From a virus (lineage: Duplodnaviria; Caudoviricetes): a stretch of 64,000 nucleotides of DNA. The translations under genes were made by a program, and so were the position numbers. Where the stretch lies: positions 96,001-160,000 of the IMG/VR virus record IMGVR_UViG_3300031992_000007; one strand, given 5' to 3'. The notes under the pieces were generated by a model. That model was not told the origin of the DNA. It searched no databases and saw nothing but the letters and a program-made list of their open reading frames with translations. Shown here piece by piece: positions 972 through 48,956 of the stretch. How positions within the stretch are numbered: position 1 is the first letter of the stretch; each line of letters begins with the position of its first letter.

Positions 972-1791
972 AGGTGAGCATCCAGAACTTGGATATTGGA
1001 TAGCATATCACGAAGGTGGTTCTGATAGAGAGGGAACGTGTGTTTCAGCGTGGACTCGCAGTGGATATTATTCAGTAGACAGACTAGCATGTAGGCTCTC
1101 CTATCTGGAGGTGAGGGTGAACGCTATTGGCATGCTGGGTGGTATGGAGCAATGGCTGTAGACAGAGAAGGAAAGAAATTGAATGTGACTATCTACTGGG
1201 TAGTTAATCTTGATATACACAATAGGCTCTCCTCAGAGGTGAGAACAGAGAAGGACAGTCGATATGTCTACGAGCAGTCGCTGATCAAGAGAATAATTCC
1301 TCACACGATGTCTTAACGTTCTACTCAAATAGAATCATGAACTCGATGTATCCTGGATCTGTGTATCGTAAAAGGCTCTCCCCCTCCAGAGGTGTAACTG
1401 ATCAGTCTTACGACACAAGATTTATTGTTGATAACAGAACTGTTGGTGGAACTGTTCCTGGTTCGACATATTCAAGTGGTTCTAGTTTGAATCGAGTTTA
1501 TGGAATGACTAACAGGCTCTCCTAAGGAGGTGAAAGAACAGGCTACGTATGTCAGTGTTACATTGGACTTGCAGGATATTGTGGGACTGATACAGGCAAC
1601 ACTACAATGAATCCAGCACGACCGTTATACGATGCAGAATTTCCCAGGCTCTCCTAAAAGGTGGACAGTCTAATGGCGCACCTCTCTTTGAATATGCGTG
1701 GAGACACTGGTTCATGATGAAGAATGGGTTTCACGGAACGAACTTCTCACCTAACTGGGATAATGATGTCTCCATAAACACAAGGCTCTCC
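972..1791 (+). repeat. Cassette array A: 6 in-frame variable peptide cassettes bounded by AGGTG and AGGCTCTCC
   Basis: AGGCTCTCC at 1093, 1224, 1373, 1514, 1646, 1783. Cassettes (GGT..TCC) are 973-1101, 1110-1232, 1238-1381, 1391-1522, 1529-1654, 1660-1791; all are multiples of 3 and stop-free. Confidence 0.9.
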
Positions 1792-1812
1792 AAAAAATAA
1801 AAGCAAGCAATG

Positions 1813-1840
1813 CCTTCCCTAGGCCGAAGCCTAGGGAAGG
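1813..1840 (-). terminator. Intrinsic terminator
   Basis: CCTTCCCTAGGC-CGAA-GCCTAGGGAAGG 12-bp stem; the A-run at 1792-1802 is the U-tract on the minus strand. Confidence 0.8.
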
Positions 1841-1847
1841 TTATGCC

Positions 1848-2226
1848 CATCACTATCCCTGATGTTGAGACATTTCCAGTATCACACCCCATGAGAGCTC
1901 GTCTCTAACACGGGTCAATCACTCCCGTGCCGCAGAAAGGACGCCGGAGAGTCAGCTCTCTCCGGCAGTTCGACGAGGGATAGCCGTGTACAGGTAGGAT
2001 AACCATTAACCCACCTACGTGCTAACTGTAGCAAGTCCATGCCCTCCATACAGAGAACACGCCTGGTTAAGATACACGGCTGGAGCCCAGACCATTTGAC
2101 AAGTGTGTTTTCGATGTCCCTGGCACGAGTTCTGTAGTACACCACTATACCCCTAAACAAGGGCGGAGATCAGTGGTGGAAAGGACTCGGGGCGGCCCAA
2201 CTCCGGCTACATACATTCGTGATGAC
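1848..2226 (-). ncRNA. Candidate ~380-nt structured non-coding RNA
   Basis: No credible ORF. Many nested inverted repeats: CATCAC/GTGATG, CTATCCCT/AGGGATAG, GCCGTGTA/TACACGGC, GCCGGAGAG/CTCTCCGGC, CACGGG/CCCGTG, ACCACT/AGTGGT. Strand inferred from the flanking gene and terminator. Confidence 0.5.
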
Positions 2227-2238
2227 TGTTTAAATCGC

Positions 2239-3843
2239 TTACCAGTTCCTACGACGGTAACCGCCATGGAAACTGGGACCATCCTGAACTTCTGCCAGTG
2301 TTACCCAGCGTCCAGGTATATGATGAGTTGCGATCCAAGATTCATCCTCGAGACCGTAGTCGCGGCGGGCGATAGCGATCCTCCAGAACTTGCCATCTTT
2401 CATCTTGACGAATGCCCAAACGACGTCGTCGTAGAACACGTCAGATTCAGTCGGGTAAGTTCCCTGACCATCGATCTTCGTCTCCAAGAACGACTTGGTC
2501 TTAGCCTGGTTGTGGTAGTCGTTCAGGAAGGTGTGAACGTGGTTGGCTGACGGAGCTGTTGTTCCGAACATTGCCATGAGCGTTCCGTTGCGATACTCAG
2601 GATCGGTGATATCAACGAAGTCAGTTTTCACGGGCTTGTCCTCCTTGTCTGATTGCATGGTATTCTGAAGTTCCCTTTCAGGTTCCTTGATCCTGATCTC
2701 GACAGTGTAACCCTTGTCGAAGTCATACTTGACTCCACCGATCTCGTAGTCGCGATCAAGCAGCTTGCCTGTCGCTATCGGGGATTCGATGAGTTTGTTG
2801 AGCACGATTTCGGCACGGTCGTGTTCAACTTCGAGGCAGTTTATATCGTTGCCCAATACAGTCTGTCCAATTTCATCCTTGATCTTATCGTAGAGTTCGG
2901 TCTTGCTCTTGTCAACGTACGGGCTGACATCAAGCTTGGAGTCTGCATACTCGGGCATTACTTCGACCCAAATGGTAGTGCTTCCTGTATTCACTTCTGG
3001 TTCCTCCTTAGGTTGTTTTTGCTCTTCGACTGGTTCAGGTTCTTCAGCAGGAGCTTCTTCTACTCCTGGTGCGTCATCCCCGTCGGTTCCTCCGTCGGAT
3101 TCGGATCCAGCATCTCCTTCTTCAGGCTCTGCAGGTTCCTGCTCGTCTCCGGAGTCGTCGGGATCGGGGGAGTCTGGCTCGGATTGTTCATCTGTTCCGC
3201 TATCTGTGACGACACCGCTTTCCAGAACGGACTCTCCAGTGGATCTATCATCTTTGACCTCCTGTTTTTCTTCGGTTGATTCTAGTGTCTCGGTAGAAGG
3301 CTGTTCTTCTTCTTCAGGTTCATGGTGAACCTCCACGACCTCTGGTGGTTCGTGGAAGAGGGACTCATTCTTGAGTCCCTTCACGAAGTTCTCCTTCTGG
3401 TCGACTTTGAACACAGTAATCCTCTGACTGCTGTATTCGATGAGAGGACGGCTGACAACCGCCTCGTATTCAGATCCATCGAGTTCCTTGGCGAGCACTT
3501 CGTATTCAAGCGTGATGCGAGAAACGTTGTGTCCGTCTGGACGAGGGAGTTTGCTTAGAATGATGTTCAGACCATAATCGGTCGTAAACTTCCACACAAC
3601 TCCGAGACGGAACTTGTTGATGAGATGCATTCCGAGTGCATGGCTCTGATCGCCACAGGAGTTCAAGATCCCATTGGCGATGTCATGGATGCTGCTTTCT
3701 CCATAGTTGTTGCTGGAGATACTGAGCAGCATGCGGCAAAGCTGCATGCTGTCGATACGATCCAGACATCCGAATCCTTCCTTCTTGATGCGATCTCCAA
3801 GAGAAGTAACATTCGGACCTGATAGCTTGATTGTACTAATCAT
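2239..3843 (-). CDS. Hypothetical protein with a long acidic Glu/Asp/Pro-rich linker
   Basis: Long ORF; start set at ATG 3843 (MISTIK) with an AGGAG RBS. Confidence 0.75.
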   Translation of the reverse strand: MISTIKLSGPNVTSLGDRIKKEGFGCLDRIDSMQLCRMLLSISSNNYGESSIHDIANGILNSCGDQSHALGMHLINKFRLGVVWKFTTDYGLNIILSKLPRPDGHNVSRITLEYEVLAKELDGSEYEAVVSRPLIEYSSQRITVFKVDQKENFVKGLKNESLFHEPPEVVEVHHEPEEEEQPSTETLESTEEKQEVKDDRSTGESVLESGVVTDSGTDEQSEPDSPDPDDSGDEQEPAEPEEGDAGSESDGGTDGDDAPGVEEAPAEEPEPVEEQKQPKEEPEVNTGSTTIWVEVMPEYADSKLDVSPYVDKSKTELYDKIKDEIGQTVLGNDINCLEVEHDRAEIVLNKLIESPIATGKLLDRDYEIGGVKYDFDKGYTVEIRIKEPERELQNTMQSDKEDKPVKTDFVDITDPEYRNGTLMAMFGTTAPSANHVHTFLNDYHNQAKTKSFLETKIDGQGTYPTESDVFYDDVVWAFVKMKDGKFWRIAIARRDYGLEDESWIATHHIPGRWVTLAEVQDGPSFHGGYRRRNW

Positions 3844-10305: not shown

Positions 10306-12246
10306 ATGTCAGAAGCAGAAGTTCCCCCGTACTCGAAAGCCATTCTCAATGCCAACCGAGGAGTGACTAACATAATCGAGGCGGATGTCATTCGAGATGA
10401 TCTGATCAAAGTGATCGACAAACTCTTCAATACTCTCAAGAAGCACTACGGACCTCTTAGTGAGTTCGCAGCTCTTGACAGTAGAGATCCTCTGTCCAAA
10501 ACCAAGTTCACTAAGGATGGTATCAACATCGTTCGTGCTATCGAGTTCACTTCTCCTCAGGAGGACTGGATCCGCAAGACGGTAGCCTTCATCGGTGAGC
10601 GAGTCGAAGCATCTGTTGGCGATGGTACGACATCAGCGATGATGTTCACCTGCGCTATGATGAAGCGCATGATGCAGTCCATTGATAAACTTCGCCCGAT
10701 TTCTTACATCGAGCTTCAGCAGAAGTTTATGAATCTGGTGTACGACATCGAGGACAACATCAAGTTGGTGACCTACGGACCAAAGGTTGACGGAGAGGTC
10801 GATAGTAATCGAGTCCACCAAATCGTCTACAACCAGGTGTATACCGCTTCACACGGTGATGTTGAGTTGGCCAAGGCTGTTGCTGAGCTGTATGACTCAA
10901 CACCTGAGGAACTGTGGGACAAGATGATCTACGAACGTCTGACCTACGAGTCGGACAAGAGATTCGATGTTGTCTACACTGGCGGTCAGTATCAGATGCC
11001 ATGTGAAGTCATGATGAACGGAATGTTGAACCAGGAGTTCTGCTCCAGGTACGATCACGAGCACTGCACGTTCGTGGTTATGAACAACCCGATCATGATG
11101 GACACGGATGCGTATCAGTACGTCATCGATACGATCGAGTCGGATGAAGTTAGCAAGGATAAGCCCCTTGTAATACTCTGTCACTCGAACATCGATACAG
11201 CCACTTATCAGGACCTAATAGCCAGGCTGAACGAGTATGTTACTCGCGATAAACCTGTTGTCATCTTCTACGTCAATACAACGATGGGTGATTGGAATCC
11301 TGAGGTGAACGACTTCCGTACACTTCAGCTTCTCTGTGGAATGGAGATTACCAAACTTCGTCGTACACAGAACAGGAATGAGTTGGTTATCGTCAAGGAT
11401 GTCCATGTGTCCTGGACGAACAAGACCCTTGTTCTTGATCACCTCTACGAAGTTCCTGAAGAGTGGAAAGACGAACCTCGTCGTCACATGGCTATCGACG
11501 GCAAGCACATGCAGTATACGGACTACCTGGCTGCAGTCAAGAAGTACGCCGAAGCATACGCCAAGCTCCCTGCCAACAAGAGCAACAAGGAGATGACGAC
11601 TCTCATGTACAGGACTTATGCCAAGCTGATGTATACCAAGCTCGGTTGCATCCGCATCGGTGGTTCTGTCCATGACAATGTGGCTCTCTTGGATATCGTG
11701 GATGACTGTGTAAGAGCTTCCTCTAGGGCACTCTGCAAAGGTATCACCTTCGGTAACAACAGGTCTCTGTACATCATCCTTAAGGAGTTCGAGGATATCG
11801 AGAAGTACGACCGCGTTCGTTCGTGGTTGATCTCGAACATGATCGCTGCTCTTGAGGATATGGCCGTTGCTCAGATGGAGTTGATCTTCCCTGGTGAGAA
11901 ATTCAGCAAACGCAGGAAACGTCAGTTCGTAGAGACCTGGTACACTCACGCGATCAACGTCATTGGTCTCTTTGACAAGTTGCACGATGATGATGCGGAT
12001 CAATTCGATCCTCTTGTGGATCTGAGTGAGACTAACTTGGTTAATAAGCTGGCAGACGCCCTGGTGTCTACCATGGACTTCCAGGAACTCCTCACCGATC
12101 CTCTTATTACCCAGCCTGCTGATACCGACATTTCTATGCTCAAGCGTTTTGGAGAAGTTGCTCTCAAATTTGCTCTCTCTGGGAGAATCATAGTGAGCAA
12201 TTCTGCCTACGTGAATGATAATGAAAGGAAGGCAGGTAAGAAATGA
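10306..12246 (+). CDS. groEL: Divergent GroEL/chaperonin-like protein
   Basis: HYGP, TKDGINIV, VGDGTTSA (ATP-binding), IRIGG and DDCVRA..AL..GI motifs in GroEL order. Confidence 0.8.
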   Translation: MSEAEVPPYSKAILNANRGVTNIIEADVIRDDLIKVIDKLFNTLKKHYGPLSEFAALDSRDPLSKTKFTKDGINIVRAIEFTSPQEDWIRKTVAFIGERVEASVGDGTTSAMMFTCAMMKRMMQSIDKLRPISYIELQQKFMNLVYDIEDNIKLVTYGPKVDGEVDSNRVHQIVYNQVYTASHGDVELAKAVAELYDSTPEELWDKMIYERLTYESDKRFDVVYTGGQYQMPCEVMMNGMLNQEFCSRYDHEHCTFVVMNNPIMMDTDAYQYVIDTIESDEVSKDKPLVILCHSNIDTATYQDLIARLNEYVTRDKPVVIFYVNTTMGDWNPEVNDFRTLQLLCGMEITKLRRTQNRNELVIVKDVHVSWTNKTLVLDHLYEVPEEWKDEPRRHMAIDGKHMQYTDYLAAVKKYAEAYAKLPANKSNKEMTTLMYRTYAKLMYTKLGCIRIGGSVHDNVALLDIVDDCVRASSRALCKGITFGNNRSLYIILKEFEDIEKYDRVRSWLISNMIAALEDMAVAQMELIFPGEKFSKRRKRQFVETWYTHAINVIGLFDKLHDDDADQFDPLVDLSETNLVNKLADALVSTMDFQELLTDPLITQPADTDISMLKRFGEVALKFALSGRIIVSNSAYVNDNERKAGKK

Positions 12247-13926: not shown

Positions 13927-15513
13927 TTATTTAGATCCTTTACGTTTTTGTGCCAGAGCCTGAAGCTTCATTCCATAGAAGTGGATCATGTTGTTGCTCA
14001 GTCTCTGAATGTCGTCAAGAAGGTTGTCAAGCTCACGGGAGATCCGCCCATGAACGATACAGTCGAAGATACCAGGGATGGAGATGTACGAGTTAAATGT
14101 CTCGTAACCTTTAATAACTTTGGCCATGTATTCATCATACTGACTGCAGTTATCGATCTTCTCCTTGATAACCTCGATGTCGTCCATATACTTACGGACC
14201 AGTTCAGGATCCGCAGAGTTGGCTTTGAGTTGCTGAATCGAGAGTGCCATCAGTTCCTTGAACCTCTGACATCCAGCAGGATAGAGACTATAGCTCCAAT
14301 CACCACAAATAAGCGGTGCGTACACAAGCAGTTTCATCTTGTCGAGGATGCTTATGTTCTTGTGAAGCCTCTCTATTGCATTGATTTTCTCGATCTCCTC
14401 CTCACTCTTACCAATACGGTTGAACAGCTGTCCAAGTTTGGTAAGCGCACTGACTTGGTCTGACCCATAGCCGTGCGAGAAAGCGTACTCATCAGCTTTA
14501 CGCTCCTGCCAGGTAACCATCCTTCCGTTAGCACGGAGATCACCGAATTTCTTCTTCTGATCGGATGCTTTGTACTTGGAATTAGCCTGGGTACCGAACA
14601 GCATCTGGGCTGGAATAGCTATCGCATCGAAGATGATGTAGATGACAGCCATGATGAGTCCACCAATGAGTTTCTTCTTGGTAGGAGGATCCCCAGCAGC
14701 TCCAGCCTTAGCGAAGTCAGCTTCGAACCTCAACGCAAGAGCATTGACTTTCTTGGCAGCATCTTCGTTACCACGGAGTTTCATTACCGCAGCTGCTTCC
14801 TTAGCCAGACTTACAGCACCCTTGTAGTCTGTATCGTGAGCAGCCATGTAAGCGGCACTCAGATAGTTGAAGGTAGCGGTTCTGGCATACAGGTCTGCAC
14901 AGTGCTCAACGAGAGTAAGAGTGTGCCCTATCTCGTGAAGGACAATAGCCGTGATCTCTCTAGCAGTGAAGTTGTTAACACCACTGCCTTTAGGGAGGAA
15001 GTCAGCCATCAAGAAACCTGTACGGATATCGAATCCGATAACAGAAGTGACGAGCTGTTTGATCTTATCGCGATCTTCCTTCTTGATAGATCCAGATATC
15101 TTGTCGTAGCTGCTAGCCAAAGTCACAAGATCCTTGGCAGACAACTCATCTGGGATATTCGTGTGCCAATACTTCTCAGTATAGCCACCATTGAGAATGT
15201 TCTCGATCTGAAGGGTGCCAGCACCACTTCCGGAACCACCGAAGGTCATCCAGGTGCAGAAGCCACTGTCCCACAGTTCGACGTATCTAACCTCCGAGAT
15301 CCAGAGACCAGTATACCTCCAAGTAAGGTCCATGAACTTCTTCGCGCAGTTGTTGTGGAAGAACTCTTTGACCTTCTTGTAACGAATGCGGTAGTCCAGG
15401 TTAGCAAGTTCCTTGTCACGGTAGTCTATAACAGACTGCCAGAGAGCATCGAGCTCTTTTCCGAACTTGCTTTGGACGGTAGCCTGCATAGCCTCAAGAG
15501 CTAATTTAAACAT
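13927..15513 (-). CDS. Putative virion protein with zinc-metalloprotease motif
   Basis: EITAIVLHEIGH (HExxH) and downstream ERKADEYA...GYG; ALE site near the N-terminus. Confidence 0.65.
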   Translation of the reverse strand: MFKLALEAMQATVQSKFGKELDALWQSVIDYRDKELANLDYRIRYKKVKEFFHNNCAKKFMDLTWRYTGLWISEVRYVELWDSGFCTWMTFGGSGSGAGTLQIENILNGGYTEKYWHTNIPDELSAKDLVTLASSYDKISGSIKKEDRDKIKQLVTSVIGFDIRTGFLMADFLPKGSGVNNFTAREITAIVLHEIGHTLTLVEHCADLYARTATFNYLSAAYMAAHDTDYKGAVSLAKEAAAVMKLRGNEDAAKKVNALALRFEADFAKAGAAGDPPTKKKLIGGLIMAVIYIIFDAIAIPAQMLFGTQANSKYKASDQKKKFGDLRANGRMVTWQERKADEYAFSHGYGSDQVSALTKLGQLFNRIGKSEEEIEKINAIERLHKNISILDKMKLLVYAPLICGDWSYSLYPAGCQRFKELMALSIQQLKANSADPELVRKYMDDIEVIKEKIDNCSQYDEYMAKVIKGYETFNSYISIPGIFDCIVHGRISRELDNLLDDIQRLSNNMIHFYGMKLQALAQKRKGSK

Positions 15514-40016: not shown

Positions 40017-40719
40017 AGGTGAAGATGGGACATCTATCCATGTTTCTAGAGTCGTTCAAACGTGGGGAGTGAGTAATGTTGGAGATATAAACATTTCCAA
40101 CTCCGTACACACTTATCCTCACTTATCAGAAGCCAGGCTCTCCGGAGGTGATGTCACTATTTACAACCAATATGGGTTAGCACAACCAAGTAACCTTATC
40201 GTTATGGATTATTCCGTAAACAATGGATGTCTTCCTAATAATCACATGGGTTTTGGATTGATTTTTATAGGAAAACCAGGAAGGCTCTCCCAGATAGGTG
40301 AGACGACAACTCCAGAATGGTTGAAGAACAAGATGGGAATGTGTAGTGCCGAAAGTCAGGGTTCGACAAGAACGTACGATCAATCTCCTAACACAGTTGT
40401 AACCAGACAGGGTGGCTTTATTCCAAGGCTCTCCAGGTGGAAATACCGAAAATAAAGACGTACATAGTAGACAGGAAACATTGGTCATAATGTCTAATGG
40501 AAGTGCGCATTACCACGATTCAAGATTGTGGCCAGCAGCTAATGATCCAGAAAGAGTAAGGCTCTCCGCTCCGCCGGAGGTGTTTCGTACGCACAGACAC
40601 ATTATTTCTTTCCGCACTGCGTAGCTCCAATAATCGACGACGGTGTGATGTGGCAGAACGGGTGGCAGGGTGCAGATTTGATGCATTATAGCGGAATATT
40701 TAAGCAAATAAGGCTCTCC
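40017..40719 (+). repeat. Cassette array B: 5 in-frame variable peptide cassettes bounded by AGGTG and AGGCTCTCC
   Basis: AGGCTCTCC at 40135, 40282, 40426, 40559, 40711. Cassettes are 40018-40143, 40147-40290, 40297-40434, 40436-40567, 40579-40719; all are multiples of 3 and stop-free. Confidence 0.9.
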
Positions 40720-47459: not shown

Positions 47460-47535
47460 TCCAACTTAGCTCAGTTGGTAGAGCGCCGCACTGTTAATGC
47501 GGTGGTCCCAGGTTCGAGTCCTGGAGTTGGAGCCA
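47460..47535 (+). tRNA. trnN: tRNA-Asn (GTT)
   Basis: 76-nt cloverleaf: TCCAACT/AGTTGGA acceptor, anticodon arm CCGCA-CTGTTAA-TGCGG, T arm CCAGG-TTCGAGT-CCTGG, encoded CCA. Confidence 0.97.
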
Positions 47536-48380: not shown

Positions 48381-48956
48381 ATGGCAGATGAGACGAACTG
48401 CTCCAGCTGTGGTGCATTGCTGAGCGACTACAAAGTTGAACACGTGAATTATGATCAGTGTGGTAAATGTGAGTTCCAGTGGTCTAAAATAGCTAAGCCT
48501 ATAGAAGAGTTTAAGTTCGACGAATGTCCTAAGTGTGCAGCGAAGAGTCTGGAGTGTGGTCCGAATGACCAACGGATGTGCAAGACTTGTCGTTGGCTGT
48601 GGACAGTAGGACAGGAAGAGGCAGGCAAGTATGACACTACAGACGGTCAACCTGCTGAACCAGGTGGTGGGAACTGTGGTGGATGTGGTGGTTGCTGCAA
48701 TAAAGATGTAGTTCTAGAGAAGAAGGATCCCACTAAGACTTCATCTTGTCCAGGTGGCTGCTGTGGTAAAGGCGGTTGTTGTGGAGGTGGAGGAGGATGT
48801 TGTTGTGGCGGTGGATGTTGCGGAGGATGCTGTGGTGGTAAAGGTAAACAACAGCCTGTAGCTAAACCAGCATCTGAAGCATCGGCTGGAGGTGGTGGGC
48901 CCTTGTGGTTCGTCATCGATATTGCCAACACACTGACAGTTGCTGTTCCTCTGTAA
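48381..48956 (+). CDS. Cys/Gly-rich protein (CxxC repeats plus GGCCGG tracts)
   Basis: AGGAGG RBS; four CxxC motifs followed by low-complexity Gly-Cys runs. Confidence 0.7.
   Translation: MADETNCSSCGALLSDYKVEHVNYDQCGKCEFQWSKIAKPIEEFKFDECPKCAAKSLECGPNDQRMCKTCRWLWTVGQEEAGKYDTTDGQPAEPGGGNCGGCGGCCNKDVVLEKKDPTKTSSCPGGCCGKGGCCGGGGGCCCGGGCCGGCCGGKGKQQPVAKPASEASAGGGGPLWFVIDIANTLTVAVPL

Follow-up and report, generated by a model that had tools for sequence, protein, structure and literature searches.

Arrays of silent, in-frame cassettes in a phiKZ-like jumbo phage: a probable donor library for a single fibre-like acceptor gene

Two programmed ways are known by which phages alter the target of their receptor-binding proteins: the mutagenic retro-copying of diversity-generating retroelements (DGRs), and invertases that switch among a few alternatives. 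Another principle, the non-reciprocal transfer of silent cassettes into an expression site, is known from bacteria and parasites. Here we describe arrays of silent cassettes in a stretch of viral DNA of 64,000 nucleotides (nt), termed “the window” (bases 96001-160000 of the 265,480-bp virus record IMGVR_UViG_3300031992_000007). The cassettes very probably belong to a genome-wide library of about 52 silent donors, which are copied non-reciprocally into one acceptor gene. New in this case are the occurrence of the principle in a virus, the tiny anchors that delimit the cassettes, the lack of any known enzyme and a setting that resembles that of DGRs. All sequences used are metagenome assemblies.

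In DGRs, such as the Mtd system of Bordetella phage BPP-1 or the gut-phage elements with DUF6273/C-lectin-like targets, a short variable region resides at the extreme C-terminus of a phage tip protein between invariant residues, and it is replaced by copy-paste from a silent template that remains unchanged. DGR homing has a fixed 3' boundary and a variable, homology-dependent 5' boundary. The cassette system shares these traits, the invariant residues being WWLRS.../...LSPLITIG, and an Avd-like gene adjoins the target here as well. Unlike in DGRs, no reverse transcriptase was found in the 265-kb genome, about 52 unrelated templates take the place of one template repeat, and the copies are faithful (160 of 160 positions, including every adenine) rather than subject to adenine mutagenesis. 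Moreover, the templates are dispersed genome-wide, and diversity is stored, not generated.

Neisseria pilE/pilS, Borrelia vlsE/vls and Anaplasma msp2 likewise combine one expression site with many start-less partial copies; the transfer is non-reciprocal, the donor is retained, and variants differ among near-clonal genomes. Eukaryotic parallels of silent-cassette conversion are the trypanosome variant surface glycoproteins (VSG) and the chicken immunoglobulin (Ig) pseudo-V genes. In Borrelia vls, donors and expression site occupy opposite strands, and the same applies to most of the donors described here. In contrast to these systems, the present one resides in a virus, and whole cassettes are replaced between anchors of 8 nt and 5-14 nt, whereas mosaic conversion in the bacterial systems proceeds via a long conserved framework. 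Furthermore, the cassettes lack internal homology, no RecA was found in the phage, and an Avd-like partner is present. The invertible or shuffled fibre ends controlled by Mu Gin, P1 Cin or the R64 shufflon recombinase Rci also provide alternative C-terminal adhesin or fibre ends that are stored inverted; yet here no invertase or integrase was found, the donor is kept, and 52 alternatives, up to about 220 kb distant, compare with 2-8. A full-text literature search yielded no comparable silent-cassette or cassette-array system in phages.

Silent cassettes and their acceptor gene

Array A (window 972-1791) comprises six head-to-tail units, each of which runs from A/GGTG to AGGCTCTCC, with intervening linkers of 8, 5, 9, 6 and 5 nt. 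The unit lengths given in the preliminary description (129/123/144/132/126/132 nt), the translations, the TGA before the first unit and the absence of start codons at the 5' ends were all reproduced; unit A1, which directly follows this TGA, contains no in-frame ATG, GTG or TTG anywhere inside. Array B (window 40018-40719) adds five further units of 126, 144, 138, 132 and 141 nt, three of which are contiguous in one frame. Altogether, AGGCTCTCC is found 11 times in the window, compared to 0.71 occurrences expected. The features of the two arrays are as follows (window coordinates):

973..1101, plus strand: silent cassette A1, 129 nt, G...RLS, TGA upstream
1110..1232, plus strand: silent cassette A2, 123 nt
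1238..1381, plus strand: silent cassette A3, 144 nt
1391..1522, plus strand: silent cassette A4, 132 nt
1529..1654, plus strand: silent cassette A5, 126 nt
1660..1791, plus strand: silent cassette A6, 132 nt, final unit of array A
1792..1840, minus strand: A-run and hairpin (1813-1840) closing array A, terminator-like for the converging minus-strand gene
40018..40143, plus strand: silent cassette B1, 126 nt, TAA upstream
40147..40290, plus strand: silent cassette B2, 144 nt
40297..40434, plus strand: silent cassette B3, 138 nt
40436..40567, plus strand: silent cassette B4, 132 nt
40568..40578, plus strand: linker GCTCCGCCGGA, the same 11 nt as directly 5' of the cassette in the acceptor gene
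40579..40719, plus strand: silent cassette B5, 141 nt, final unit of array B

With a unit defined by the start (A)GGT(G) and the end GGCTCTCC, the genome harbours 52 silent units, 11 of them within the window, which are organized in eight tandem plus-strand arrays, one solo plus-strand unit and a two-unit minus-strand stretch. GGCTCTCC, the core anchor, is present in 50 copies on the plus strand and in three on the minus strand. The phase relationship noticed earlier for 11 of 11 units in the window extends to the entire set: the length is divisible by three in 52 of 52 units (111-153 nt, about 45 codons), and the GGT frame is stop-free in all of them, whereas shuffling of the interiors leaves on average 3.2 and at most 9 units open. 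In the remaining five frames, only 0-13 of the 52 units are stop-free. The base preceding GGCTCTCC is A, T or G, but never C, so that the units end in R/W/G-L-S. The anchor had previously been described as conserved at the nucleotide level and invariably AGG CTC TCC; the former applies to GGCTCTCC, which is kept at the DNA level in relatives, while the invariant AGG does not hold genome-wide. None of the 52 units carries a start codon at its 5' edge, the cassettes sit in intergenic gaps, and the end anchors are the only sequence they have in common, their interiors being unalignable. Fifty of the 52 cassettes are located on the plus strand, opposite to the acceptor, and 158 of 224 crude open reading frames (ORFs) lie on the minus strand.

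A full-length gene with both anchors in frame had been predicted, and it exists outside the window on the minus strand (genome 224574-228812). This acceptor gene, P0001, is an ORF of 1412 amino acids (aa) with the C-terminus ...YWWLRSAGG-GEIWSY...NKHRLS-PLITIG, in which the cassette position is found six residues ahead of the end; the cassette-encoded segments comprise 38-51 residues. At the DNA level, the upstream flank TGG CTC CGC TCC GCC GGA is joined to a cassette that starts with GGT GAA and ends with AGG CTC TCC, followed by CCG CTG ATT ACT ATT GGG TAA. The acceptor sequence 224754-224595 is identical in 160 of 160 nt to the plus strand at 243698-243857, which represents the last unit (243708-243857) of the array 243018-243857 and the 10 nt CTCCGCCGGA upstream of it, 19 kb away from the acceptor. 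On the 3' side, this identity ends exactly at GGCTCTCC. Since WWLRS, PLITIG and the 13-mer GGCTCTCCCCGCT are each unique in the genome, only a single expression site exists.

The surroundings of the arrays bear on whether the units function where they stand. An A-run plus hairpin is located downstream of eight of the nine plus-strand cassette loci and, on the minus strand, resembles the terminator of the converging gene; upstream of the plus-strand loci, there is either a plus-strand terminator or the start of a divergent gene. The element at 1792..1840 was missed by a consensus scan, since its T-run begins 12 nt past the stem. This layout suggests that little sense transcription of the arrays would take place. 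Between the hairpin that closes array A and the stop of the next minus-strand gene, 445 nt (window 1795-2240) are free of ORFs and contain many strong hairpins (fold z-scores: -2.2 on the minus and -2.6 on the plus strand); this segment has no match in Rfam and no second copy in the genome.

Expression of the units in situ, as small proteins, RNA-joined exons or structured RNAs, with an only incidental copy in the fibre gene, would be in keeping with the Shine-Dalgarno-like GGAGGTG at unit starts and with the contiguous frame of three array B units. Because the acceptor carries GCC GGA GGT at the cassette junction, GGAGGTG is best read as homology to these acceptor codons and not as a ribosome site. 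In-frame start codons are lacking at the unit starts and, in A1, throughout the unit; terminator-like hairpins or a divergent gene start flank the loci, and neither Rfam (gathering and E-value thresholds) nor ARAGORN gave a match within the arrays. The codon usage departs from that of expressed genes (GC content at third codon positions 0.33 in cassettes vs 0.545 in phage genes; correlation of relative synonymous codon usage r = 0.00) and fits sequences that are expressed only occasionally, and the coding constraint is fully explained by DNA-level copies in acceptors. In situ expression is accordingly given very little credence. Several specific versions were also considered: small ORFs are ruled out by the lack of in-frame starts and by the closed other frames, and structured RNA, tRNA or ribozyme arrays by the negative Rfam and ARAGORN results. 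A polyprotein produced by frameshifting or hopping, for which the linkers are of mixed phase and contain stops, was dropped once the acceptor was found, and a circular or concatemeric never-ending ORF (DRT2 “neo”) is at odds with the lack of a reverse transcriptase and with units devoid of a start codon. A blastn search of a phage collection produced no match, and a pattern scan of IMG/VR for paired anchors returned 11 matches, all of them chance pairs.

Cassette switching among related phages

In a search of 1.84 billion proteins, the C-terminal 283 residues of the acceptor hit only 10 representatives, and a word-index search retrieved six full-length relatives, 40-64% identical, on jumbo-phage contigs of up to 259 kb in ENA. 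Relatives were obtained only from ENA assemblies, through protein searches; in IMG/VR and the JGI metagenomes no fibre relatives were found. All six full-length relatives end with YWWLRSAGG, 43-50 unalignable residues and (R/W)LSPLITIG, and a further, more distant relative ends with YWWLRTAGG-...-GLSPLITIG. In the DNA of these relatives GGCTCTCC and GCCGGAGGT are kept, while the adjoining L-R-S and P-L-I-T-I-G codons vary synonymously, and therefore selection acts on the anchors as DNA. Cassette arrays also occur in the relatives, opposite in strand to the fibre gene, with nine units in contig L027, 13 parsed units in L028 and three in L031, all of which are in phase and open.

Closely related acceptors differ in their tips. 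Members of one 90%-identity cluster agree in 97-100% of the 300 residues that precede the cassette, yet their tips are unrelated. The P0008 cluster features at least seven distinct tips across 10 full-length members with flanks that are 98-100% identical; P0003 and P0016 differ in their tips despite identical flanks, and P0004 and P0005, 85% identical overall, are nearly identical in the last 250 residues ahead of unrelated tips. The contigs L026, L048 and L049 share 99-100% DNA identity over 14 kb (beyond about 11 kb, an indel shifts L049 out of register), and they carry three different tips. The expressed tip of L048 corresponds to a solo silent cassette, which is kept in all three contigs 9.4 kb upstream on the other strand. 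Tip and silent cassette differ by three mismatches in 159 nt, without an adenine pattern, and the identity extends from CCGGAGGTG to GGCTCTCC. Because the donor is retained in two independent cases, the phage's own genome and L048, the transfer is non-reciprocal and of a copy-paste type. Judged from these comparisons, switching looks fast relative to point mutation.

Turnover and coding constraint, both expected from the preliminary description, are found in the relatives. For five pairs of homologous cassettes, two of them from within the genome and three from comparisons between genomes, dN/dS amounts to 0.13-0.46 at a dS of about 0.8-2.3, and indels comprise whole codons, which indicates that the silent cassettes are under purifying selection. 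Between genomes, homologous cassettes are found in differing arrays, with differing neighbours and linkers: the counterparts of L027 array units 2, 3 and 6 are spread over three separate arrays in the genome studied here, and the syntenic arrays of L027 and L031 have no cassette in common. What moves is thus the single cassette. The earlier proposal that cassettes are swapped into an expressed gene, by recombination or by RNA-level joining, stands with regard to the swap, in view of the 160-nt copy, the near-identical relatives that differ only in the cassette, the L048 copy and the purifying selection. RNA-level joining would be unnecessary, as the exchange is evident in the assembled DNA.

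An assembly artefact, or a graveyard of functionless dead tip fragments, might come to mind, since every sequence derives from metagenome assembly. The 156-kb sister contig L049 ends (at 14759) 25 nt past the acceptor gene, and the tips of some cluster members are frameshifted or truncated; both observations are consistent with mixed populations that break assemblies at the acceptor. Yet several samples and assemblers have independently yielded the same grammar, all 52 frames are open, dN/dS is below 0.5, and the assembly of a contig requires reads that contain the acceptor-cassette junctions. We consider an artefact or a graveyard most improbable.

Boundaries, machinery and competing mechanisms

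At the 5' end, donor and acceptor match exactly over 5-7 nt for 43 of the 52 units and over 9-19 nt for six more; at the 3' end, the exact match measures 8 nt for 45 of the 52. The 3' boundary lies at the 8-nt GGCTCTCC in every case, and the 5' boundary is short and variable, consisting of AGGT(G) and 0-14 nt of the GCCGGA flank. Upstream of GGT, identity extends over 10 nt in the own-genome case and over 5 nt in L048, and in the L050 acceptor the 5' flank has been co-converted, as it reads GTCGGAGGT, which is donor-linker-like, instead of GCCGGAGGT. Conversely, acceptor-type linkers (GCCGGA, GCTCCGCCGGA) occur inside arrays, and the linker at window 40568..40578 is most readily understood as a footprint of the acceptor flank within array B. 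Five cassettes are preceded by the acceptor 5' flank CTCCGCCGGA (window 40568-40578; genome 11380, 57555, 243702 and 246687), and three of these five are the last unit of an array. The statistics are weak; the pattern may point to an occasional transfer of acceptor sequence to the ends of arrays, by archiving or by reciprocal events.

Given these boundaries, we envisage a templated, polar replacement, which would begin at the fixed 3' anchor GGCTCTCC, run through the donor and be resolved by microhomology near AGGT on the 5' side. A return made at a later GGCTCTCC would yield multi-cassette tracts, such as those in the acceptors of L028, P0025 and P0012. The Avd-like protein encoded beside the acceptor may assist in this copying. 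The ancestor of the system would be a DGR, from which mutagenic reverse transcription has been lost.

The phage is a phiKZ-like jumbo phage with phiKZ internal head proteins, a split multisubunit RNA polymerase, and divergent DnaB and family-B polymerase. A scan of the genome for recombinases and reverse transcriptases, as suggested by the preliminary description, revealed neither, and an Avd-like gene was found instead. Six-frame genome searches gave no match to serine or tyrosine recombinases (PF00239, PF00589), and no RecA, IS110, Y1 transposase or credible TnpB. A Pfam scan of 176 ORFs identified general functions only, namely RuvC-like, SMC_N (SMC/SbcC-like), DHH, RNase H, NAD ligase and topoisomerase II. 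The sole HNH_3 endonuclease, at 177.3 kb, is unlinked to the cassette system.

The Avd-like gene (genome 221824-222822, minus strand, outside the window) adjoins the acceptor, and orthologues of 295-347 aa do so in seven of seven genomes. All seven are matched by PHROG 3206, “Avd protein of DGR”, with E-values from 3e-9 to 1e-4 over profile positions 7-130 of 154. The protein consists of an N-terminal, four-helix-bundle-like part of approximately 135 aa, which matches the PHROG, a conserved middle part and a tail rich in Pro, Glu and Lys. The presence of this gene beside the acceptor suggests descent from a DGR. The orthologues are located at:

L025:15420-16388, Avd-like orthologue
L026:15066-16106, Avd-like orthologue
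L027:15555-16520, Avd-like orthologue
L028:15992-16969, Avd-like orthologue
L031:15276-16241, Avd-like orthologue
L047:5984-6868, Avd-like orthologue

The same library and acceptor could also operate without dedicated machinery, if general replication and repair enzymes performed microhomology gene conversion or template switching, and the Avd-like gene were a relic or otherwise employed. The lack of a detectable site-specific recombinase, reverse transcriptase or transposase agrees with this explanation, and so do the general functions encoded by the phage, the variable, homology-dependent 5' junction and the multi-unit tracts, which are compatible with synthesis-dependent annealing; strong selection in large phage populations could, moreover, fix rare events. 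With 5-8 nt, however, the anchors are very short for efficient homologous recombination, a phage RecA was not found, and switching seems fast, with at least seven tips in 10 genomes at 98-100% identical flanks. Likewise, conservation of the anchor base for base in phages with only 40% identical fibres, the location of 50 of 52 donors on one strand and the Avd-like gene maintained beside the acceptor in all seven genomes argue against general recombination alone. It nevertheless is a possibility to be taken seriously, albeit at well under even confidence. A dedicated, Avd-linked templated mechanism rather than general recombination comes close to being probable in our judgement, without reaching that grade.

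Reciprocal site-specific recombination at both anchors by an unrecognised recombinase family, similar to an invertase or a shufflon, is compatible with short, exact sites and with the orientation of the donors, as 50 of 52 and the arrays of the relatives lie on the strand opposite to the acceptor. It would also accommodate the two-unit inverted stretch that abuts an array head to head at the 5' anchors (genome 10854-11913). This stretch comprises two inverted cassettes (genome 10854-11106, minus strand) facing the first unit of the plus-strand array 11111-11913 (CACCTCATGGTG), and it looks like a local inversion with a breakpoint at the 5' anchors. Yet two independent transfers have left the donor in place, and the 5' junction varies. 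Nor did the searches bring up a serine or tyrosine recombinase, IS110, TnpB or Y1 enzyme, and an inversion of 10-220 kb would have to accompany every switch. Such a mechanism is improbable. Beyond the Avd-linked and the general-recombination mechanisms, the remaining probability falls to an unrecognised site-specific enzyme or to other routes.

DUF6273 is a C-lectin-like domain, and in many phage DGRs the variable region is found at its C-terminus (PMC10743442, PMC11792537, 10.1101/2024.10.15.618418). By protein-language features (atlas), the acceptor C-terminus scores 0.95 to DUF6273 clusters, and its motifs DK(v/i)W(L/I)PS...WWLRS...P-x-x-TI(G/A) recur in paralogues of the same gene module, some of which bear DUF6273. 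The cassette would occupy the place at which DGRs mutate such targets. A PDB sequence search with the fibre C-terminus gave no match. One paralogue, P0009 (1570 aa; genome 229950-234662, plus strand; L020:5950-10662), ends with ...VWALRTCPRYTAGG-(25 aa)-YIVPHFTIA; the same end motifs surround a short fixed segment, and the DNA anchors are absent. The array 234729-235269 begins directly after the P0009 terminator.

Several points weigh against a donor library that is copied into a receptor-binding fibre along a DGR-like route. None of the 11 window cassettes was found in any acceptor, and we infer their donor role from the identical grammar. Tandem cassettes (2-4) are present inside the acceptors of L028 (15142-15640), P0025 and P0012, and in L028 the frame stops after the second cassette, ahead of the PLITIG tail; such multi-cassette acceptors could be copying by-products or assembly chimeras of mixed populations. 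The acceptor protein has no match in Pfam or PHROG, and it is its size, gene neighbourhood and motif that make it a candidate receptor-binding fibre with the cassette as exposed tip. Its resemblance to DUF6273 is significant neither by hidden Markov model (HMM) search nor by hhalign (E 0.05-0.19), and AlphaFold models, built from 6- and 20-sequence alignments, reach a pLDDT of 36 and 40, too low to be used. Furthermore, a DGR-like cDNA route would have to proceed without its enzyme, as neither a PF00078 six-frame genome search nor the Pfam scan of 176 ORFs detected a reverse transcriptase. Finally, the Avd assignment relies on one library: elsewhere, one orthologue has an NCBIfam E-value of 0.027 and the atlas score to a bAvd cluster is 0.85, and the protein has no Pfam bAvd match and no PDB match.

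Apart from the cassette system, the window contains a tRNA-Asn (GTT) at 47460-47535, which is identified by ARAGORN and Rfam and is the sole ARAGORN match. Tandem repeats of 24 and 30 nt rich in GTGGAGGAGG are located at 48763-48838 and probably encode a repetitive acidic/Gly-rich protein segment.

Implications for phage biology

A stored repertoire of about 52 ready-made tips, copied and pasted into one expression site, appears to be a third way of retargeting. The antigenic-variation logic of bacteria and parasites would here be put to use by a virus. This would explain how a lytic jumbo phage tracks variation in host receptors without new mutations, and it makes sense of several kilobases of array that gene callers overlook as “non-coding”. 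The cassettes also represent a natural set of interchangeable tips on one scaffold, which is useful for studies on specificity.

Mechanistically, the puzzle is the precise replacement of approximately 140 nt via anchors of 8 nt and 5 nt, beside an Avd-like protein and with no recognisable recombinase or reverse transcriptase. A possible solution, which we put forward tentatively, is a new DGR-derived machine for targeted diversification, centred on the Avd-like protein and operating without a reverse transcriptase, which would faithfully copy any of about 50 templates into a fixed site by means of the 8-nt 3' anchor and approximately 5 nt of 5' homology. If true, this would constitute programmable, polar, copy-paste gene replacement by some polymerase or priming mechanism, and a dedicated enzyme, if one exists, may be of interest as a short-anchor tool for gene replacement.

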